From Dehalococcoidia bacterium (GTDB lineage: Bacteria; Chloroflexota; Dehalococcoidia; Lucifugimonadales; UBA3495), in NCBI GenBank assembly GCA_022450395.1, contig JAKUQE010000012.1, positions 2,810 to 66,809 on the forward strand: a stretch of 64,000 bases of DNA, read 5' to 3'. Below, in pieces: positions 16,138 to 28,643 of this stretch. The notes beneath the pieces are model-generated. The model was given only the letters and a program-made list of their open reading frames with translations. It made no database searches and was not told the origin of the DNA. The first letter of the stretch is position 1; each line of letters opens with the position of its first letter. A program made the position numbers and the translations under genes.

Positions 16138-16212
16138 TCCCGAGTAGCTCAGCGGTAGAGCGGGCGGCTGTTAACCGCTAGGTCCGAGGTTCGAATCCTC
16201 GCTCGGGAGCCA
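16138..16212 (+). tRNA. tRNA-Asn (anticodon GTT), CCA encoded
   Basis: Cloverleaf folded by hand: acceptor TCCCGAG/CTCGGGA, anticodon loop CTGTTAA, T-arm CGAGG-TTCGAAT-CCTCG. Confidence 0.95.
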
Positions 16213-16214
16213 AA
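16168..16214 (+). repeat. 47-nt direct repeat, copy 1 (3' half of tRNA-Asn from the anticodon loop); att-like
   Basis: 46/47 identical to 17734-17780. Confidence 0.9.
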
Positions 16215-16215
16215 A

Positions 16216-16470
16216 AACTCGTAAAATGATTTCCATCAACCGAAGGATAATCCCAAAGTCGATACTGTCTCCGAACAGGGTTCACGATGACACGGGTGTA
16301 TACGTTTTGGACATCCGCGGAAGTGAGCAAGGCACCGAACCGCCGGATTGGAACGTTAAAGTTGAGGGCGTGTCGGATGTGGTGCGGCCGGGGCCCGGGT
16401 ATACGCTTCAGTAATCCAGCAGCGACGACTACCCGGACTTGACGACAGCGGAGGTCGAGATTCAGGGCAG
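16216..16470 (-). pseudogene. tyrosine recombinase (integrase) C-terminal relic
   Basis: The ORF 16178-16525 translation ..RVVVAAGLLKRIPGPRPHHIRHALNFNVPIRRFGALLTSADVQNVYTRV.. resembles the integrase catalytic end (HxLRH...LLGH....YTHV), with H replaced. The N-terminal two thirds are missing. Confidence 0.5.
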
Positions 16471-16486
16471 GGCTGTTAGCCACCGG

Positions 16487-16515
16487 CCGAGAAGCCGGGT
16501 GATTTAGGGACAGCG
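16487..16515 (+). repeat. 29-nt direct repeat copy A (CCGAGAAGCCGGGTGATTTAGGGACAGCG) containing a hairpin
   Basis: 28/29 identical to 16558-16586, with a 42-nt spacer. Confidence 0.8.
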
Positions 16516-16557
16516 TCGAAACCAATCAGGTCGAAGTCCCGGGTGGTCAGGCATCAC

Positions 16558-16586
16558 CCGAGAAGCCGGGTGATTTAGGGATAGCG
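16558..16586 (+). repeat. 29-nt direct repeat copy B, with perfect hairpin CACCCG-agaagc-CGGGTG
   Basis: See copy A. Confidence 0.8.
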
Positions 16587-16603
16587 AGAAAGATGGACGG
16601 GGC

Positions 16604-16631
16604 TTGCCTTTCGGGTACAGGCGACTACAAT
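16604..16631 (+). promoter_or_regulatory. candidate promoter TTGCCT-N16-TACAAT for the 3-ORF cassette
   Basis: Hexamers read directly. SD TAGGAGGAG follows, before ATG 16659. Confidence 0.5.
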
Positions 16632-16658
16632 GACCGGGTTATCTAGGAGGAGCTGGCA

Positions 16659-16997
16659 ATGGCAGACGACGACCCAACAGTAACACAGCCAATTCAGAGA
16701 GGGGCTCTTATTAACGCTCGTGGTAGATGGACCGGCGGAGCAGAACTTCCCCTATTGTTCGCCAACCAACTATGGGCCGCAAACTTCGGCCCGCACTTTG
16801 AATTAACTTTCGGGCATAATGAATTGCCATACGAATTAATTACCCCTGAGTTGGTAACAAAACTGGAAGAAGAAGGGGTAGAAATCAAGGCGATTTCAAG
16901 GGTTGCAGTTGGTCCAGATGAACTTGAGGCCATGATCCAGATACTTGCCGGCGTCCTGCAACAGTGGAAGGATAGGAGACCGAACGATGCCAGATGA
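16659..16997 (+). CDS. hypothetical protein (112 aa), cassette ORF1
   Basis: Strong SD. ..LLFANQLWAANFGPHFELTFGH.. is reminiscent of DUF3467-type proteins (from memory, weak). Confidence 0.6.
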   Translation: MADDDPTVTQPIQRGALINARGRWTGGAELPLLFANQLWAANFGPHFELTFGHNELPYELITPELVTKLEEEGVEIKAISRVAVGPDELEAMIQILAGVLQQWKDRRPNDAR

Positions 16998-17481
16998 ACA
17001 ATTCGCGATTATGTCAGGCTCCACAGATCGACTTCCCAGACCTTATTGGCTCCCGGACGCAGGTCATTGGAACCTAGGCGACGTTGGCGATCGAGAGTTT
17101 CAATACAATGTGCTCGAACGTGGGGGCGTCGTGATTCTGGGTGGCGAAATATCTGGCACAGTAATAGCAGGCAGCGGCGAGATAAATATTCGCTATGCTC
17201 CTGTACCTCGTTACGCTTTGCAGAACGAAGTCGAAGCACTCTACGAGAGAATAGCAGCGCTTGAAGCGCAGGCGATCGCCGAACCAGAGCCTCTACGGGA
17301 GATCCCGAAAGACCAAGCGCGGGAAGAAATAAGAGCACTGTTTAGCGAAGGTGGGATTATATATATGTCCGATGTCGCTGATCGCTTAAACTTACCCGAT
17401 GAGCTGGTCGTAGAGATTTGTTTAGAGTTAGAAGGCGCAGGGGAGTTGAATCGTCGTGACAACGCAGTGGACGCTCGGTGA
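16987..17481 (+). CDS. hypothetical protein (164 aa), cassette ORF2; coiled-coil plus possible C-terminal winged helix
   Basis: SD AGGAGA before ATG 16987, overlapping the ORF1 stop by 11 nt. C-terminus IYMSDVADRLNLPDELVVEICLELEGAGEL looks wHTH-like. Confidence 0.6.
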   Translation: MPDEQFAIMSGSTDRLPRPYWLPDAGHWNLGDVGDREFQYNVLERGGVVILGGEISGTVIAGSGEINIRYAPVPRYALQNEVEALYERIAALEAQAIAEPEPLREIPKDQAREEIRALFSEGGIIYMSDVADRLNLPDELVVEICLELEGAGELNRRDNAVDAR

Positions 17482-17656
17482 CGGCATTAAGGGAAATCGG
17501 ATTATTGTTGTAGCTGAGAGTATCCGAAAAGATCCGGGGAAAAGGATCAAACTCACATCGGCGCATACTGGGGAGAGGGCTAGGGCACGCGGTGAGGCCT
17601 ACGCCTATATCGACAAAGCTTTCGAATCCGTGCCTCGCTCCGCGCGGCCTAGATAG
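17456..17656 (+). CDS. hypothetical protein (66 aa), cassette ORF3
   Basis: GTG start overlapping ORF2 by 26 nt. Basic protein. Weak support. Confidence 0.35.
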   Translation: MTTQWTLGDGIKGNRIIVVAESIRKDPGKRIKLTSAHTGERARARGEAYAYIDKAFESVPRSARPR

Positions 17657-17688
17657 CAACATTTATTAACTGATCGGGGTCGAAAACA

Positions 17689-17722
17689 GGAGGGCGCCAG
17701 GCCGTGCCTCCGTTCGGTTTTT
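17689..17722 (+). terminator. hairpin GGAGG...CCTCC followed by gttcggttttt
   Basis: Lies between cassette ORF3 and the right-hand tRNA repeat. Confidence 0.5.
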
Positions 17723-17733
17723 GACGCGGACAA

Positions 17734-17780
17734 CTGTTAACTGCTAGGTCCGAGGTTCGAATCCTCGCTCGGGAGCCAAA
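17734..17780 (+). repeat. 47-nt direct repeat, copy 2 (displaced 3' half of tRNA-Asn); att-like
   Basis: ctgttaactgctaggtccgaggttcgaatcctcgctcgggagccaaa. One mismatch to the intact tRNA. No 5' half present. Confidence 0.9.
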
Positions 17781-18052
17781 CCACCCAACCAATATCTCAT
17801 TAAATCCCGTGATGTTTTTCCTGGTTCTCTTAGCTTCGTACACCTTAGACTAGATACATCTCCAATTCATGTTCAGACCGCTGATGCTTCGCGCCTGACC
17901 AAATCGTTGTCCAAAGCGAATCCGGCGCTGAAGGAACATGGCCAGGCGGGTGAAGTCTGAACCGAATTGTAGATCACCACGTCGCCGCGATGCAGTCGTA
18001 AGAGCAGTCCATCGCGGTGCTCAATCTATGCTTGGGAGTAAACGGGAAAGAA

Positions 18053-18234
18053 TGGACTACAAGTTATTCGACGATCGCACTAAGGAATTTCTTGGCTGGC
18101 TGCGGAACCAAGGATTCCCGGCGGCAGGTAATATCATTTCCTGGAAAGGAAGAAATCGGAAGTTGACGGACGCGGAAGTACAGAAGACAACCCAAACTCT
18201 CAGTGCCGCGATCGTCTTCGCTCGGGAGATTTAG
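18053..18234 (+). CDS. hypothetical small protein (60 aa)
   Basis: ATG 18053 within track ORF 17938-18234. Low-GC region. Weak SD. Confidence 0.3.
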
Positions 18235-18423
18235 GGTCAATATAACGGCGGCGAACACGCCTTAATGGCTGGTATAGTCCAGGCACAAATATCGTAGAGC
18301 GTTCGATAGACAGTCGCGGGAATCATCTTTATTTCTCTAAAATTACCCTTGATGCCCAGACCCTTGCCATTCCCGCGCCCACTAGATAGACTCGGCTCAT
18401 AACAATTTAGGAGCCTTTATCGA

Positions 18424-19425
18424 ATGGCAGAGCAGATCCATCCCAATATTGTTGCCCGGACTGTTGGAAGAGAATCGGTGCTAACCGTAGTCGGCGCCGC
18501 ACCGGACGCTAGGGGGCCGTGGTCTTTCATAACTGGGATACCGAACCCCGGCTTCGATATGGTTGGGCCTCCTGCCCAATACCTGTCGGTGGCTGCTTGG
18601 GCCGCTTGAACCGTGGTCACGGTGGTAGGCGTGGCCTACCGTGGCAACATCGCCCTGGAAGACATCATGGTCGATTTTGAGGTGGAGGCGGTTGAGCTTC
18701 CCAATGCGATCGGGTTCGGTGTTAGGGAACTTGTCACCCTGAAAGGCCGGATATCGGAGCCGGAGCGGGTCCGGCTTGAGCGGGCTTCCCGGTATTGCCC
18801 AGTTGGACAGGCTCTGACCAAGGGTTCCATGGAGATCGAGGATGAGATTCGATGGAGCAATGGTGAGGTGGCCTCAGCCTCTCCATTGACGGAATCCCTT
18901 CCCCCTTCGGACTGGGCTCTACCCGCCATACCTACCGGATCCGTCCATGGCCGATACCTTCTGGACACAAAAGAGTACGACGATGAAGGGAAGATGGAGC
19001 ACGAAGGGGAGGCCAAGATTTCCATCCAATGCCAAAACCTGACTCGGACAAGCCGCTGGACCATACTCGGCGGACATAGCTCTGAAGGCTGGGTAACGCC
19101 ACCGTTTCCCTTGGGCCACGCTGGGTGGGCAGCATCGACCGTTTCTACATTGAGCCGTCTGTTGCCCCAAGGGACGGAAGACGCAGATGGCCTCAGTGTG
19201 GAGTTGTATATGGCGGCCGGTGGCGGCGGTAGGGGGCAGTCCCAGTCCAACGCCGCCGAGGGCGTGGTGGCTCGCCGCGGGGTAACGCGCCGGATAATGG
19301 TGCCCGGAACTCCCAGCACCACCCCGATCGAGGCGGTACAAGCGGCGCTTCAACGCGACCCGATAACACTGGCCTACCTGAACGGGGGCGTACTTTTACA
19401 TGACGAGGTGGTGGTAGAGTCGTAG
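18424..19425 (+). CDS. OsmC/Ohr-like hydroperoxidase-family protein with in-frame TGA (18607-18609) at the first catalytic Cys position; candidate selenoprotein with a second degenerate OsmC-like half
   Basis: Track ORFs 18424-18609 and 18613-19425 share one frame. SD AGGAG precedes ATG 18424 and none precedes GTG 18613. The joined text is ..PPAQYLSVAAWAA[TGA]TVVTVVGVAY..RASRYCPVGQAL... A hairpin lies downstream. Confidence 0.7.
18618..18643 (+). promoter_or_regulatory. SECIS-like hairpin CAC-ggt-GGTAGGC-gtg-GCCTACC-GTG
   Basis: 7-bp upper stem, GTG loop, 3-nt 5' bulge, 3-bp lower stem. The loop lies 21 nt after the TGA. Confidence 0.5.
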
Positions 19426-20291: not shown

Positions 20292-20834
20292 TTAACGCAA
20301 GAGTTCGGCAAATTCCCCTCGGACTTTTGCTACCTTCGGCCTGATCACGATCTGACAATACATCATGTCCGGATTGTTCAGATAGAACTGCTTGTGGTCT
20401 TCCTCGGCCTCGTAGAAGGCTTCCAGGGGCACGACCTCGGTGACGATGGGGCCGGGCAATGAGCCGGAGGAATCCAGTTCCTTGATGTATGCTTCCGCCT
20501 GCTCTTTCTGGGCGTCGCCGGCATACAGGACCATCGACCGATAGTGGGTACCACTGTCAGCTCCTTGCCGGTTCAACGTGGTGGGATCGTGGGTTTCGAA
20601 GAATACGTCCAGGAGACGTTGATAGGAAATTTGATCAGGGTCGAACTGGATCTTAACTGCTTCGGCGTGGCCGGTATTGTCGGCGCATACCTGGCGATAC
20701 GTGGGGTTTTCCGTATGTCCACCCGCATAGCCTGGAACCACCATCAGCACGCCTTTAAGTTGAGAAAAGACCGCTTCGGTGCACCAGAAGCATCCCCCCG
20801 CGAATACCGCGGCCTCATGATTGTTTTCAGCCAT
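20292..20834 (-). CDS. msrA: peptide-methionine (S)-S-oxide reductase
   Basis: AVFAGGCFWCTEAVF active-site motif, 180 aa. Confidence 0.95.
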   Translation of the reverse strand: MAENNHEAAVFAGGCFWCTEAVFSQLKGVLMVVPGYAGGHTENPTYRQVCADNTGHAEAVKIQFDPDQISYQRLLDVFFETHDPTTLNRQGADSGTHYRSMVLYAGDAQKEQAEAYIKELDSSGSLPGPIVTEVVPLEAFYEAEEDHKQFYLNNPDMMYCQIVIRPKVAKVRGEFAELLR

Positions 20835-21298
20835 ATTTTTCCACCCGCTTTCTGACTATAAGATTTCCTGAAACCGAGTCTACTATAGACCATGGTGGTA
20901 TGACCACTGGGCAAGGCCGATTTGGGTAATTTTAGCGGTTCAGAAGGATGACAATAGTTCTGCTCAGACAACGCCATAGATACAGGCCAGCGCCCCATTG
21001 TGAGGGTCCATTGTCACTGGGATGTGTACAGCAAATACCCCTCATCCACCAGACGTGCCATCCTCTCCGTCTCCTAAAACCTCCCGGACAACAGCCTGCC
21101 GCACGGCATCCGCATCTTCGGTCAGGTCGTGTTCCATCGTGGAATAGTCGGCGTCAGGGATCTGCTGTTTTAAGGCGGCCATGAGGTTTGAATAAGGCTC
21201 CTCCAAGTCTCCAGCCAGGTCGATCAACAGCCGCCGGCAGGCCAGGATACCAACGACGTTGTTGATATCCTGGAAAACCTGAAGTTGCCCCCTCAGGC

Positions 21299-23587
21299 TT
21301 AGATGATATCCGTAGGGACCTGCATCCCTGGGGAGGCCAGGCTGCTCTGATAAGCTGCAAGGGCCTCTTTGGGCCTTCCGTTGCGTAATTGATGCTGGCC
21401 CATGTAGCCCCATCCGGCGCGGACACCGAGCCAATTGGCAATATTACTGTGTATCACCAAAGCTGTCCGAAACTTCTGAACAGCGTCTTCGTCATTCCCC
21501 TCCAAGGAGGCCACCAACCCAAGCATCTGCAGAGTGTTGGCCTCCCCCAGCCGGGCCTGGATTTCCCGGAAAATGGGCAGGGCTTCATCGTAGTGAGCGC
21601 GGGCGTCGCCCAAGCGGTCTTCCCGCAGGTCCAGGTCTCCCAGGGCCTGTAACGTGTTGGCCTCCCCCAGCCGGGCCTGGATTTCCCGGAAAATGGGCAG
21701 GGCTTCATCGTAGTGAGCGCGGGCGTCGCCTAGGCGGGCCTCCCGCAGGTCTAGGTCACCCAGGACCTCTCGGGAACTGGCCTCGAGAAATCCCCATTCT
21801 TGTTCAGTGGCGTCCCGGACGGCGTGCTCCAAGAGTTGCCTGAGCAGGGCGGTCTCCCACCTATAAGCGGCGAACTGAGCAACGTGGACGATAAACTCGG
21901 CCCTGCTTCGGGGGAGCGAATACTCGACTCCAGCGGGGGCGCCCGCATCTTTCACCATCACGCGAGCCGTGCGTTCCAGGTTGGTTGCCTCTTGGTGGAA
22001 AGCAAGAATAGCGTCGGTGGACCGGTTGTCAGTCACCAATCGACTGAGGTTCCCTGGGAAGGCAGCCATCACGCTAAAGAACCTGGCCTCATGTTCTCCT
22101 AGTTCCTCTCCGGATTCTTGCCTCACCACCTCCCGCATCAGGCGGTGCATGGAGAAGCGCCGGCCGCCGGCCTCACCTTCAGAAGCTACGAGCACCGAGC
22201 GCTGGCGCAACCGGTTCAGTTCACGTACCGCAGTGCTCTTGTCCTCGGGGTCAAGTTCGGCGACTTGGAGGAGCAGTGACTGGGGACCACCGCTCGCGGG
22301 TTCGAAGCAGGCTACGGAATAAAGCAGCCCACGGGCTGCGTCACCCAGGCCTCGCAGACTGAGTCTGAGCACCGCGTGCACGATGCGGTGGCCACGGGCC
22401 TCTTCGGCGCTCAACTCACGGTCGCCGATGGATTCGGGGACCAGGGCTTCCAATTGGTGGCTCTCATCTGGGTACATTTCCAACCACGACGAGACGGACA
22501 AATCCTCGGCGGCGATACTAGCGGAGGCCACGTCCACCGCGATGGGCTGGAAGCCCAGCATCTCGCACAACTGGTCTATCTCATCTTCCTCGTCCCGCCA
22601 TCGCTCCGGTCCCAAGGGGGATCGGAAAACGCCCCGCGCCTGTTCTGGGGTAAACTCTTCCAATCTCACTGGGTCTGCCCCGGTGACTTCCCGCAGTAGC
22701 GCTTCGTCTCTGGAGGTGACGATGGTTCGGCATAAGCCCCCTGGGTTGGGCAACAGCATCCGGACATCCGCTGGGTCGTCGGCGTTGTCGAGGATGAGCA
22801 GTCCTTCGTAGCGGGAAAGGGCCTCCCTAAGCACTCTGCTGACCTGGGCATCGGTGTGGTCCGGGTCGACCTGGAAGCCGAGGGCCAGCGCTAGGTCGGT
22901 CATGGCGCCTCGCACCCGGCCTGCGTCTAAGGAAACGTAGAGGGTTTTTCCGGGGCGGGTCTGCCGGGCATACCGTACCGCTAGCAAGCTTTTGCCGCCG
23001 CCACCGCCGCCGCCGATACCCACCACTTCTTCTGAGGAGAGCCGCCGGTCCAGCTCCGCAAGCTCGGGCCGGTCCACCCGGTAATGTTCGTCGGAGGGTA
23101 GTGATAGGGCAGGCGAGGAGGCGGGTCCAGACTGAGCGGCGGAGTGTGCTCCGGTGCTCAATACGTCGAGGGTTTGGACGGCCAAGGTTTCTAAGCGGCC
23201 CAGCGTTTCACCCTGCTCCGCAGCGAGGGAATTTGCCGCCAAGGTTGCGTCATCGGCTTGCGCCATGCGGGCGGCATCCCTAGCATTGAAATACCGGACG
23301 AGGGCCTCGGAGTCGGCAGACAAAACTGACCGGCAAACAGGCGCTATGAGCCGCGACATCCGCATTATGATGTCAAGAAGGGGTGGATTTGACTGGGTGT
23401 AGCTTGCCTTTAAGTCGGCGATGGTACCGAATCCATTCAGGAAATCGGCGAAACCGGGATCCCGGAGCAGGTTGACTATGCGGTGCCATTCCTCACTGCC
23501 CGCGGAAGTCCCGGAGCTGCTTCCATAATGGTTGATGACTCTCAGGGCGGCATTAGGGTAGGCTGCATTGAGCTTGCGCCGCACCAA
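21299..23587 (-). CDS. STAND (NB-ARC-like) P-loop NTPase with unassigned ~190-aa N-terminal domain and C-terminal TPR array
   Basis: Walker A GIGGGGGGGKSLLA and Walker B LLILDNADD. TPR units LGDARAHYDEALPIFREIQARLGEANTLQ. TTG/GTG start with AAGGA SD. Confidence 0.8.
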   Translation of the reverse strand: MVRRKLNAAYPNAALRVINHYGSSSGTSAGSEEWHRIVNLLRDPGFADFLNGFGTIADLKASYTQSNPPLLDIIMRMSRLIAPVCRSVLSADSEALVRYFNARDAARMAQADDATLAANSLAAEQGETLGRLETLAVQTLDVLSTGAHSAAQSGPASSPALSLPSDEHYRVDRPELAELDRRLSSEEVVGIGGGGGGGKSLLAVRYARQTRPGKTLYVSLDAGRVRGAMTDLALALGFQVDPDHTDAQVSRVLREALSRYEGLLILDNADDPADVRMLLPNPGGLCRTIVTSRDEALLREVTGADPVRLEEFTPEQARGVFRSPLGPERWRDEEDEIDQLCEMLGFQPIAVDVASASIAAEDLSVSSWLEMYPDESHQLEALVPESIGDRELSAEEARGHRIVHAVLRLSLRGLGDAARGLLYSVACFEPASGGPQSLLLQVAELDPEDKSTAVRELNRLRQRSVLVASEGEAGGRRFSMHRLMREVVRQESGEELGEHEARFFSVMAAFPGNLSRLVTDNRSTDAILAFHQEATNLERTARVMVKDAGAPAGVEYSLPRSRAEFIVHVAQFAAYRWETALLRQLLEHAVRDATEQEWGFLEASSREVLGDLDLREARLGDARAHYDEALPIFREIQARLGEANTLQALGDLDLREDRLGDARAHYDEALPIFREIQARLGEANTLQMLGLVASLEGNDEDAVQKFRTALVIHSNIANWLGVRAGWGYMGQHQLRNGRPKEALAAYQSSLASPGMQVPTDII
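21534..21730. repeat. 120-bp tandem duplication inside the TPR region (77 nt identical: 21534-21610 = 21654-21730)
   Basis: Lines 21541-21600 and 21661-21720 are identical. Flanks are similar with mismatches. Confidence 0.9.
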
Positions 23588-23976
23588 CCAGTCCTTGATG
23601 CGGCGGGCCGCGAGTCCACTCGCGAACTTGGCCGCTGCTGACGCAAATGCTTATGGGGCTAACATATATCCGCCACCCTGCCCCCGGCTCCCAAGCTTGG
23701 AGGGCTAAACAAAGATAGATGGTCATCGACACCGAGGCGAAGAATCGAGTATAACTGCCGTTCATCTACCTCAGCAAACCGGACATCTAATGAACTCAGC
23801 TGTTGTGTTCTGGGGCCGGAACCTAAATATTATTGATGAAGCGCGTGGGCGGCAAAATCAATAGCCGTCAATCTGACAGAAAGAGCTTCGGACCGTAGCG
23901 GTGGACAAGCCGCCCACCCCGACGTAACATGCGCCATGTTGGCAGCGGGGCGATTGCCGCCAGGCGAGGTGAATTC

Positions 23977-24972
23977 ATGGAACGGATCGGGCTTTCTTTC
24001 TCTGGGGGTCTCAATCCGCCGGATATAGTGGACTGTATCCAGCTTGCCGATGAGTTGGGGTATGAATCGGCGTGGATGGCCGAGGGGCATGGGGGTGATC
24101 AGTTCTCAATCCTGACCGCCTGCGCTCTCAGGACCAAGAATATCCTGCTGGGCACCAGCATCACCAGCGTTTTCGTCCGTAGCGCCCCTACCATCGCCAT
24201 GGCCGCCGCATCGGTGGACCACTTTTCTCAGGGGAGGTTCGTGCTGGGTTTGGGAACCAGCCACAAGGTCCAGGTGGAGCCGGAGCATGGGTTGGTGTTC
24301 GAAAAGGCGGTGCCTCGCCTGCGGGAGTGCGTTGAGATCGTTCGGGAGTTGTTGCAAAAGGGCGAGGTGTCCTATCAGGGTAGCGTGTACGACATAGAAA
24401 ACTTCGACTTTTGGTTCGAGCCTTTGCGAAGGGAGATACCAATATATGTGGCCGCCGTTTTCCCTAAGATGCTCGAGGTCTGCGGAGAGATCGCCCAAGG
24501 CGCCCTGATGACTTGGTGCACCCTGGAGCATGCTGAGACCGCGGCGGCCCACGTGGCAGAGGGGGCGAAACGGGCCGGGCGCGACCCCAGCGAGGTAGAC
24601 GTGGCTACGCTGATGCCTTGCGCGGTGGGTAGCTCGGGCGAAGGGGCCATTGCGGGACTGAAGACCAACATCGCCAGGTACGCCGCCAAGTTCCCCCGGT
24701 ACCGCAAGTTGATGGAGGACGCCGGCTTCGCCGAGGAACTCCAAGCGGTGCGCCGTGCCTGGAATGACGGCAATGAAGCGGAAGCCATCTCATTGGTCCC
24801 CGACGAACTCGTCGACTCCATCGCGCTGGTGGGTAGCGCCGAAAAAGCCAGGAGCCGGCTGGATGAGTATCGCCGCGCGGGCATCACCCAGCCGATCATT
24901 TCTCCCCGGGTTTCCGGCGAAAACTCCAAAGAAGAAGCGATGCAGATCATCCGGGCGTGCGCGCCTAGATAG
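23977..24972 (+). CDS. LLM-class (luciferase-like) flavin/F420-dependent oxidoreductase
   Basis: MERIGLSFSG..ADELGYESAWMAEGH. SD GAGGTG before ATG 23977. Confidence 0.85.
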   Translation: MERIGLSFSGGLNPPDIVDCIQLADELGYESAWMAEGHGGDQFSILTACALRTKNILLGTSITSVFVRSAPTIAMAAASVDHFSQGRFVLGLGTSHKVQVEPEHGLVFEKAVPRLRECVEIVRELLQKGEVSYQGSVYDIENFDFWFEPLRREIPIYVAAVFPKMLEVCGEIAQGALMTWCTLEHAETAAAHVAEGAKRAGRDPSEVDVATLMPCAVGSSGEGAIAGLKTNIARYAAKFPRYRKLMEDAGFAEELQAVRRAWNDGNEAEAISLVPDELVDSIALVGSAEKARSRLDEYRRAGITQPIISPRVSGENSKEEAMQIIRACAPR

Positions 24973-27430: not shown

Positions 27431-28273
27431 TTAGATCAGCTTGGCGCACTCGTCGATGATGGGTACGACGGTGTCTCGCTCGGCCGAGGGCAACCCGAAG
27501 ATGGCCCGGTCCACCCCCGCAGCCTCCAACCTGGCTATGGCATCTGGTTCCGGACGGGCCCCGAAGATGGTGATGTTGATCGAGGCCGGGTCCCGCCCCG
27601 CCTCCTCGGCCTGCCTTCGCAGCAAGACTATCTTCTCTTGCAGGCTTGTTCCTTCGCTGGACCGGCCGCTGATCGGCATCCAGCCGTCACAGAACTCGAC
27701 AACCCGGTCGAAGGTGGTCGGCCCGTCGCCTCCCATCAATATAGGTGGATGAGGGCGTTGCACGGGTTTGGGGTAAGCCCACATCTTGTCGAAGTCTACA
27801 AACTCCCCATGGAATTCCGCCTCTTCCTGAGTCCAGATCTCCTTCATCGCCAGGATCCGTTCCCGGAGCAACCGCCAGCGGCTGCGGAACCTGGTGCCAT
27901 GATTCGCCATCTCCTCCCGGTTCCAGCCGCCTCCGATACCGAAGATGAAACGCCCGCCGGACAACCGGTCCACGCTGGCGACTTCTTTCGCCAACATGAT
28001 CGGGTCCCGCTCGATCACCAGGCAGATTCCGGTCCCCAGCTTCAGATCGGTGGTAACCGCGGCGGCGGCAGTCAGGGCCACGAAAGGATCATAGGTGTGC
28101 CAGTAGTCTTGAGGCAGGTCGTCTCCTCCCGGCCAAGGGCTGCTCCTCTCGGCCGGGATATGGGAGTGTTCCGGGACCCACATGGACTCGAACCCGCGGT
28201 CCTCCAACAAACGGGCCAGGTCGTCGGGCCGGATCGAGTAGTCGGTGGAGAACATCATCGCGCCAAAATCCAT
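27431..28273 (-). CDS. LLM-class F420-dependent oxidoreductase
   Basis: MDFGAMMFSTDYSIRPDDLARLLEDRGFESMWVPEHSHIP. SD GGAGGT before ATG 28273. Confidence 0.85.
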   Translation of the reverse strand: MDFGAMMFSTDYSIRPDDLARLLEDRGFESMWVPEHSHIPAERSSPWPGGDDLPQDYWHTYDPFVALTAAAAVTTDLKLGTGICLVIERDPIMLAKEVASVDRLSGGRFIFGIGGGWNREEMANHGTRFRSRWRLLRERILAMKEIWTQEEAEFHGEFVDFDKMWAYPKPVQRPHPPILMGGDGPTTFDRVVEFCDGWMPISGRSSEGTSLQEKIVLLRRQAEEAGRDPASINITIFGARPEPDAIARLEAAGVDRAIFGLPSAERDTVVPIIDECAKLI

Positions 28274-28643
28274 GGAAACCTCCGAAGAGTGTGAGTTGTC
28301 AGTCGTTCGGCCATTGTAGCATCGCAGACCGCCGCTTATGTACGCCGGCTTCACTTAGGAGCCAGCCGTCTACGGGTCACTTCGCGCGGCTACGGACCCG
28401 CTCGTGAGGCAAATGGCGAGAGTTGGGCGAGGTCCATTCGGGCATTCGCTTAGGCTGATCGTAGCCAAAAACTGGATGAACCCGGCTTAAAGATTCCGTT
28501 GGTGAGATTCCCCAAAACAGATGAACATCGGATAGTTTTCGTCTTTAGAGCGGTTGAATTCGAGTTGACATCGCAAGTTGTCTTTATATATCGTTATAGA
28601 ACGTTAGGCGTGAACTTGAAGGCGCGGAGAGAACCTTTGTTAT

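Follow-up and report, generated by a model that had tools for sequence, protein, structure and literature searches.

Signal transduction ATPases with numerous domains (STANDs) that are built like nucleotide-binding oligomerization domain (NOD)-like receptors (NLRs) are emerging as the main bacterial pattern-recognition receptors, and their N-terminal outputs set the response after detection. To our knowledge, almost nothing is known of immunity in those Chloroflexota/Dehalococcoidia that are known only from metagenomes. Here we describe a gene of this class in a 64,000-nucleotide stretch of DNA (hereafter the window) from the Dehalococcoidia bacterium contig JAKUQE010000012.1. The gene lies on the minus strand between msrA (20292-20834, minus strand; protein MCH2516808.1) and a gene for a luciferase-like monooxygenase (LLM) oxidoreductase (23929-24972, plus strand). 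Its longest remaining open reading frame (ORF), by direct reading, occupies 21299..23587, opens with TTG and encodes 762 amino acids. A preliminary description of the window had recorded this ORF, which we find as given, and had taken it for a complete gene, which it is not. Alignment with homologues (P0002-P0010, P0102 and P0191) shows that the ORF is the largest surviving piece of a longer ancestral gene that spans 21042..23665 and is disrupted at both ends, the ORF boundaries and the apparent flanks being by-products of the lesions. What is new at this locus is the output module, which is recognised by no library and is carried by Chloroflexota/Dehalococcoidia known only from metagenomes; the receptor class is otherwise familiar, and the window copy is a pseudogene-like allele.

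The ancestral ATG start codon is found at 23663..23665 (this and all following coordinates of the gene refer to the minus strand), where it aligns with the starts of P0102, P0005 and the L005 gene. From this point the window reads M-L-A-P-*-A-F-A-S-A-A-A-K-F, which aligns with VVGPELFITAAARF of P0102, MELATGGFAAAALKF of P0005 and MVEPGTFIAAGGKF of the L005 gene, and an in-frame TAA at codon 5 (23651..23653) interrupts the conserved N-terminal helix. At this position Glu is found in P0102, the closest orthologue; a single GAA-to-TAA change would explain the stop, the Glu being known from the P0102 protein alignment. Close homologues (an alignment of ten sequences of 46-62% identity, all metagenomic or from Chloroflexota metagenome-assembled genomes (MAGs)) begin about 25 residues before the 762-aa ORF with a conserved helix, F..AA.KFA.G......RD. 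In the window its coding sequence persists, in frame and directly upstream of the TTG: a remnant at 23588..23650, outside the longest ORF, encodes the Ala/Gly-rich first helix and the basic patch that follows it (AFASAAAKFASGLAARRIKDW). The first-helix columns conserved in alignments A2-A4 are F2, A5, F9, G12 and D20.

At the other end of the gene, a 1-nt deletion at about 21335/21336 throws the conserved last 97 residues out of frame. The site, CTGGCC|TCCCC at 21333..21340, is one base short relative to the homologues, and the reading passes there from SSLA in the 0 frame to LPRDAGPYGY in the -1 frame. The displaced C-terminal cap (97 residues and a stop, 21042..21335) reads LPRDAGPYGYHLSLRGQ...EEPYSNLM... 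and matches the C-termini of P0002, P0003, P0006, P0007 and P0116, the homologues running about 100 residues past the stop of the window ORF as ...LPREGDPVGYxxSLRGQLxAF...GVLACLRLL...LEEPYxNLL.... In tblastn the STAND gene occupies two frames in the window and one continuous frame in intact relatives; if the TAA is read as Glu and one base is put back at about 21335, the restored gene encodes about 874 residues. That the displaced tail is undamaged within its own frame and the upstream helix can still be recognised argues for recent damage, not remodelling. The preliminary description had also remarked on AT-richer flanks. The downstream one (20.84-21.3 kb) is mostly displaced coding tail, and the true spacers at 20835-21041 and 23666-23928 have GC contents of 0.48 and 0.53 (gene 0.61, window 0.58), which is ordinary for intergenic DNA. 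Gene callers return a 761/762-aa protein in which neither the cap nor the conserved helix 1 appears, so that caution is due with annotations of this family.

The ancestral product consists of an all-helical N-terminal domain, a NOD, a sensor of repeats and the cap. The N-terminal domain, laid out as a globular bundle of about 110 residues and then a long helix, starts upstream of the ORF at 23665, and its in-ORF part (ORF residues 1-150) lies at 23138..23587. It is followed by a conserved pre-NOD motif, LPSDEHYRVDRPEL (23060..23101), that is shared by every family member and by P0107, P0109, P0110 and P0116, and by an NB-ARC-type NOD (22127..23020). Finally, two tandem 40-aa (120-bp) tetratricopeptide repeat (TPR)-like units at 21524..21763, delimited by Tandem Repeats Finder (TRF), Pfam TPR_12 and the repeat register, belong to a longer TPR array that extends to about 21340.

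Both lesions recur in other assemblies. The codon-5 TAA is identical in L001, an ENA contig assembled with MEGAHIT that matches the window at 99.7% identity over 5.2 kb without a gap, and in L016, a JGI contig. The frameshift is common to the window, L001, L016 and L017, the last from a 97-99% identical strain. Because independent assemblies share them, the lesions are real population features and not assembly noise. We weighed the possibility that the gene is in reality intact and that both lesions arose in sequencing or assembly, since the deletion falls in a short stretch of C residues (GGCC[C]TCCCC), the (GGC)n runs and repeats of this gene are error-prone, and some relatives come from low-coverage long-read contigs. 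However, the TAA is a substitution, seen identically in three assemblies from different samples and assemblers, and the frameshift occurs in four assemblies including that of a distinct strain, which makes this explanation highly improbable. The window copy is thus damaged at both ends, from which we infer a loss of function; judged by its reading frames, its only possible product is a protein without helix 1 and cap. Programmed frameshifting was rejected, there being no X_XXY_YYZ slippery site at 21335. Stop readthrough was rejected as well, because the stops differ in kind (TAA, TGA, TAG) and in position among lineages and because one of the broken genes has an intact allele.

That intact allele belongs to the L005-7 gene (a Dehalococcoidia MAG and two other assemblies), which carries a TGA at codon 350; P0191, a JGI allele of the same gene encoding 1033 residues, has Trp (TGG) there. 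In L011, a syntenic LLM-STAND orthologue with 75% amino-acid identity, a TAA at codon 288 in the NOD turns the Tyr of KTLYVSLD into a stop. The L003 and L004 genes are also split by frameshifts, to which we give little weight as both are on low-coverage long-read contigs. Seemingly intact members are P0003 (996 residues), P0002 (921 residues), P0116, P0106 and P0120.

Comparison of the window with L011 gave a dN/dS of 0.18 (N-domain 0.21, NOD 0.13), the adjacent LLM gene giving 0.044. Thus, the STAND gene was functional until recently and under purifying selection for most of its history. Between the window and L017 the pN/pS is 0.43-0.47, and otherwise invariant columns are altered in L017 (Y217D and N458K); both findings fit a recent relaxation of constraint. 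The two strains are otherwise 99% identical, and synonymous polymorphism (pS) is 0.008 in msrA and 0.043 in the STAND gene. Of 65 differences between them, 37 fall within the 400 bases at 23200-23599 that code for the N-domain, a divergence of about 9% compared with less than 1% elsewhere; by its distribution, this peak looks like a recombined or exchanged N-domain allele. Positions 405-477 or so of L016, numbered on that contig (window 23453-23525), hold six clustered substitutions, mostly T to G, one of which creates an in-frame TAG at the invariant Tyr of VINHY (ORF codon 21); this could be further decay or low-quality sequence.

These data bear on whether the 762-aa ORF, from a TTG (23587) or GTG (23584) start to the stop at 21299, is a functional, shorter Avs-like sensor that no longer needs helix 1 or the cap. 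All NOD motifs persist in it, an SD-like AAGGA (Shine-Dalgarno) lies 4-7 nt upstream of the possible starts, the same allele is present in at least four assemblies and hence common in the population, and the pN/pS of 0.45 is below 1. On the other side, both missing pieces are kept throughout the family, the distant P0116 included; L017 has changed at invariant columns, L016 has acquired its stop at codon 21, the P-loop has a V-to-G change in the window, and no Avs model recognises the protein. We regard such a shortened sensor as quite improbable.

The core of the protein is well defined. Pfam NB-ARC aligns to residues 184-361 with 22.5 bits, just below the cut-off of 23.5, and exceeds that cut-off in relatives with the same N-domain (P0106, 33.5; P0110, 42.5; P0109, 37.4); moreover, the family profile matches the NOD of AfsR in PDB 8k60 with an E-value of 6e-30. 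The Walker A motif, GIGGGGGGGKS, is formed by residues 190-200 (22988-23020) and the Walker B motif, LLILDNADD, by residues 263-271 (22775-22801). They are followed by an IVTSRD motif (22706-22723), a GxP-like LGFQPIAVDVASA (22520-22558; family consensus LGYLPLAVDVAAA) and an MHD-like MHRLMREV (22127-22150) in which H481, R482 and L483 are invariant, the last three motifs coming in the order expected for NB-ARC proteins. The GxP and MHD labels are ones that we presume from position and from general knowledge of NB-ARC proteins. The P-loop and Walker B motifs place the protein among the STAND NTPases of the NB-ARC/AP-ATPase clade. In the window, the Gly run of the P-loop is encoded by a (GCC)7 microsatellite of the plus strand (22994-23015), (GGC)n on the coding strand. 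Codon 197 is GGC rather than GTC in this assembly only, replacing the conserved Val of GGVGKS with Gly; L001, L016, L017 and all homologues have GGGGVGKS.

The sensor matches Pfam TPR_12 with 55.1 bits (cut-off 30.1; two stretches) and TPR_2 with 35.2 bits (cut-off 27). Its unit is 40 residues long, with the consensus LGEANTLxALGDLxxRExRLxxARxxYxEALPIFRxIxxR, and units are near-identical within a protein, different between proteins and present in 2 to about 8 copies. The two tandem units of the window are 93% identical at the DNA level (TRF), L017 has one 120-bp unit fewer than the window, and six of the seven differences between the window and L001 within the gene fall in the repeat. These repeat differences between near-identical strains suggest gene conversion or slippage. 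Repeats that stay alike within one protein have been noted as characteristic of NLRs from fungi and bacteria (10.1101/2020.01.06.895854). The C-terminal cap gave no match in Pfam, NCBIfam or PADLOC scans. Collectively, these features identify the protein securely as an NLR-like STAND of the NB-ARC clade whose TPR sensor is homogenised, and the P-loop module and TPR array named in the preliminary description are both borne out.

Among characterised proteins, the NOD-TPR region of AfsR is the closest relative by sequence. The large AfsR/SARP regulators (PDB 8k60 and 8jke) share a homologous NB-ARC-type NOD with TPRs and the Walker A/B, GxP-like and MHD-like motifs, and NCBIfam AfsR gives a partial match with an E-value of 1e-25. 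The NCBIfam score of the window protein is, however, 90 bits against a cut-off of 1430, and the window family differs in its homogenised 40-aa TPR units and its unrelated N-domain. Neither the OmpR-type winged helix-turn-helix (wHTH; PF00486) nor the BTAD (PF03704) domain has a match in the window protein or the close family; remote matches from P0014 onward carry both. We considered a BTAD remnant in the second half of the N-region (AfsR residues 224-290) and rejected it, as the family-profile alignment starts in the linker before the P-loop. The TPR protein of the FxSxx-COOH system (NF040586) also aligns over its NOD and helical region (residues 175-580, E-value 8e-25), but the score of 87.5 bits compares with a cut-off of 300 and no peptide-maturation or radical-SAM genes and no TIR are found nearby.

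One alternative is a non-immune signalling or transcription STAND comparable to AfsR, MalT or GutR, whose N-domain would be a novel output contacting DNA, RNA polymerase or a metabolic partner, perhaps one linked to the LLM. The relationship to AfsR speaks for such a role, as do the LLM-STAND adjacency kept in L011 and in near-identical strains, the housekeeping context and the dN/dS of 0.18. Against it, no wHTH, BTAD or helix-turn-helix domain was detected by Pfam, NCBIfam or Foldseek, and the neighbours of distant members are unrelated. Recurrent nonsense alleles, N-terminal swapping, homogenised copy-variable repeats and flanking transposases are, moreover, atypical of a housekeeping regulator. 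The plain transcriptional STAND that the preliminary description had offered as an equal option thus lacks its defining DNA-binding domain, and we hold a non-immune function of this kind to be distinctly improbable.

The N-terminal region of about 190 residues has no family match in Pfam (E-values up to 10), NCBIfam, PADLOC or PDB sequences, and a PDB sequence search with the N-domain profile returned only spurious coiled-coil matches to SNAP-25 (E-value 0.1). An AlphaFold2 (AF2) model built from 19 sequences is all-helical, with a mean predicted local distance difference test score (pLDDT) of 87.5 and a predicted template modelling score (pTM) of 0.69, and consists of six helices (residues 2-44, 53-63, 65-71, 77-83, 91-109 and 112-146). 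Foldseek found no match for this model (best E-values 1.6 in PDB and 0.73 in BFVD); a first model from 8 sequences had a pLDDT of 68, and its Foldseek matches were meaningless. Nuclease, TIR, SIR2 and protease folds, which the preliminary description had named for comparison with its unplaced helical N-terminus, were matched by the N-domain in none of Pfam, PDB sequences and Foldseek, and neither was a DNA-binding fold.

The domain is also rare. Among 1.84 billion cluster representatives, scanned exhaustively with HMMER, only 31 proteins contain it. A large-database search with a broader N-domain profile, A4, gave no matches, its candidate list probably saturated by Ala-rich words. In a set of 185,579 species representatives, the only genomes with a match were two Chloroflexota/Dehalococcoidia MAGs. 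The N-domain is joined to NB-ARC and TPR_10/12 (P0106, P0120), to NB-ARC (P0110, P0109), to nSTAND3 and TPR (P0116), to nSTAND5 (P0122) and to AAA_16 and TPR_10 (P0119). Its only partner outside STAND/AAA-type NTPase modules is in P0126 (L014 113-1621, on a 2-kb contig), where it is fused to a sugar-nucleotidyltransferase with a left-handed beta-helix (LbH; GlmU/GMPPB-like). Conversely, the close family exchanges its N-domains: P0002 has a true transmembrane (TM) helix instead (Kyte-Doolittle (KD) hydropathy 2.64), and in the P0007/8 lineage the N-domain is replaced by an unrelated domain beginning MDPITLIVTAAALGAAAGIK (MDPITLIV...), to which hhalign of the N-domain profile found no relation beyond 12 columns of helix 1. 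These alternative N-domains of the paralogues had no match in Pfam, NCBIfam or PADLOC scans. The N-terminal helical domain is thus, securely, a new and modular domain carried by at least four types of STAND NTPase.

A small module on both NTPase cores and enzymes is the architectural pattern that defines effector-associated domains (EADs) (PMC7159879), and the N-domain could on this model be a homotypic adaptor that recruits separately encoded proteins with the same domain, P0126 for example. Like the EADs (Kaur et al. 2020), it is a small, non-enzymatic, all-helical module that is N-terminal on diverse, unrelated STAND cores and occurs once on an enzyme. Unlike them, it matches neither the EAD or Death-like models of Pfam nor, by Foldseek, a Death fold, and no second copy of the domain was paired with the STAND gene at any locus examined. 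The enzyme fusion is a single one among the 31 representatives and comes from the 2-kb contig, and short, apparently stand-alone N-domain matches look like fragments of broken genes. We therefore consider an adaptor role unlikely.

A different lead comes from the start of the domain. The N-termini of family members read MVEPGTF, MVEPVTF, MVGPELF, MVTPAEF, MLESIAS, MVLESIG and MSPVAEIL, with MLAP[TAA]AF in the window, and continue with an Ala/Gly-rich helix and then an Arg/Lys patch; the common start is M-x-E/D-P-x-T/S. This start resembles the pore-lining 'MEPIS' helix of membrane-targeting cell-death domains of the Bell/Hell/HeLo/CC type. The signature reported for the Bell, Hell, HeLo, MLKL and plant coiled-coil (CC) domains is a hydrophobic helix with an acidic residue ahead of it, at position 2-3, and Bell occurs as the N-domain of NB-ARC/TPR proteins in Chloroflexota (10.1101/2020.01.06.895854). 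A 'MEPIS' motif has been reported in the antiphage NLRs Avast2 and bNACHT02/11/23, and the window TAA falls exactly in the MEPIS-like motif. By its residues, the MEPIS-like start of the family is a lead and not demonstrated homology. According to the literature, likeness within the HeLo/Bell superfamily can be limited to helix 1, so that a failed profile or structure match is weak evidence.

Compared with the Bell/Hell/HeLo/CC(HeLo)/MLKL-4HB domains (Dyrka et al. 2020; Bab/Agp preprint 2024), the N-domain is likewise an N-terminal helical bundle on NB-ARC/TPR proteins of Chloroflexota-type bacteria, with an early acidic residue and Pro ahead of a small-residue hydrophobic helix (MVEPGTF..., MLAP[E]AF..., MDPITLIV...). 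It is likewise exchanged for a TM helix in close relatives and accompanied by internally conserved sensor repeats. It differs in being longer (about 110 residues plus the long helix), in having neither a BASS amyloid motif nor a two-gene arrangement, and in being known here from sequence and model, with no profile or structural match. The N-module might be an undescribed branch of HeLo/Bell-type pore-forming domains, or a new cell-death output, that marine Dehalococcoidia with streamlined genomes and a probably unicellular habit carry on several STAND clades, the segregating nonsense and frameshift alleles reflecting ongoing selection against a costly suicide gene; in this extended form the idea is doubtful. 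If true, it would be a bacterial counterpart of the presence/absence and loss-of-function polymorphisms seen in NLRs of plants and fungi.

Weighing these lines of evidence, we favour, with a probability of roughly 0.45, the reading that a rare Chloroflexota NLR-like STAND, a conflict receptor with a membrane-acting N-domain as its output, is represented in the window by a copy that was recently inactivated or is, at best, truncated at both ends. We infer the conflict role and the membrane mechanism of the family from the presence of the N-domain on several STAND types, its replacement by a TM helix in a paralogue and the MEPIS-like start. The homogenisation and copy variation of the repeats, the patchy distribution, and recurrent null alleles beside an intact one point in the same direction, and variable neighbourhoods, transposases flanking two copies and a prophage near a third are what one would expect of conflict genes. 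In intact relatives (about 880-1030 residues), which comprise the N-terminal bundle of about 110 residues, the long helix with a conserved LPSDEDYRVERPEL linker, the NOD, 2-8 TPR-like repeats and the C-terminal cap, binding of a ligand to the TPR array would release autoinhibition. Nucleotide exchange would then permit the NOD to oligomerise and cluster the N-domains, and these clustered domains would form the output, most plausibly with helix 1 freed to attack the membrane in a response of the abortive-infection or cell-death type. Should the N-module prove to act on membranes, the HeLo/Bell/CC family would gain a new sequence class, and the intact and broken alleles would offer a natural series for studying the cost of such genes.

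Several observations weigh against this reading. HeLo, Helo_like_N, SesA, RPW8, Rx_N, MLKL and Bell gave no Pfam match to the N-domain (E-values up to 10) and no Foldseek match in PDB. The MEPIS likeness covers about 6-20 residues and was judged by eye against the literature description, and helix 1 is moderately hydrophobic, with a KD value of 0.6-1.9 over 18 residues compared with 2.6 for the TM helix of P0002. On the window protein PADLOC called no Avs, AVAST or bNACHT model and only a generic TPR model (E-value 1e-4); among 10 neighbouring genes in the window it called no defence genes, and a search of IMG/VR with the full-length profile found no relatives. With respect to inactivation, the frameshifts of several relatives, being on low-coverage long-read contigs, may be errors, the pN/pS of 0.45 is elevated yet not neutral, and a protein initiated at the TTG or GTG downstream of AAGGA might still be made and be functional. 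Moreover, LLM synteny has been held across a dS of about 0.85 under purifying selection, which also fits a housekeeping regulator.

Some of these points concern the Avs-like sensor that the preliminary description had proposed. As a loose architectural analogy this proposal stands: like the Avs/AVAST/bNACHT systems, the gene is a single one that joins an N-terminal output to a STAND NTPase and a C-terminal helical-repeat sensor. Membership does not, there being no PADLOC model, effector or defence neighbourhood, and the window NOD, whose nearest relative is that of AfsR, belongs to the AP-ATPase/NB-ARC type. The protein thus belongs to none of the Avs, SARP and FxSxx groups. A 2026 survey of STANDs called a clade defence-associated by a defence neighbourhood or an immune effector domain (PMC13581612); on present evidence, the window family would qualify on neither count.

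The gene had further been described as standing alone between msrA and the LLM gene. It has no conserved partner gene, in keeping with that description, but the LLM-STAND(-msrA) order is kept in near-identical strains and the LLM-STAND adjacency in the 75%-identical L011. The surrounding genes of the window are housekeeping ones and encode a ClpB-type AAA+ chaperone, DnaJ, tRNA-Asn, a hydrolase, MsrA, LLMs, EEP, a dehydrogenase and a transhydrogenase. At about 10 homologue loci, too small a sample for statistics, surroundings are not conserved and contain no defence genes and no conserved partner; the neighbours of distant members are unrelated (ribosomal protein L25, a kinase and a sigma factor). 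DDE_Tnp_1 transposase genes lie directly downstream of two paralogues (L002 9330-10796; L004 12422-13690 and 18729-22130, several copies). In L015 (9485-16885), 3.8 kb separate the P0116 gene from a Fic gene and HK97-type head genes (portal, S78 protease, capsid and gp10-like) that lie downstream of it, so that the P0116 gene may be at the edge of a prophage.

Elsewhere in the window, a second LLM paralogue (27431-28354) lies within 5 kb of the LLM gene next to the STAND gene. Both LLMs match the PADLOC 'oxidoreductase' model PDLC01078 weakly, which we take as a generic family match and not as a sign of defence. A 270-aa ORF at 18613-19425 on the plus strand, overlapped by a 228-aa ORF on the opposite strand, has no Pfam or PADLOC match. 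Finally, downstream of the tRNA-Asn gene (16138-16212), the segment at 16213-18600 has a lower GC content, 0.49-0.54, and contains ORFs at 16945-17481 and 17938-18234 without a Pfam or PADLOC match; it may be the remnant of an integrated element.

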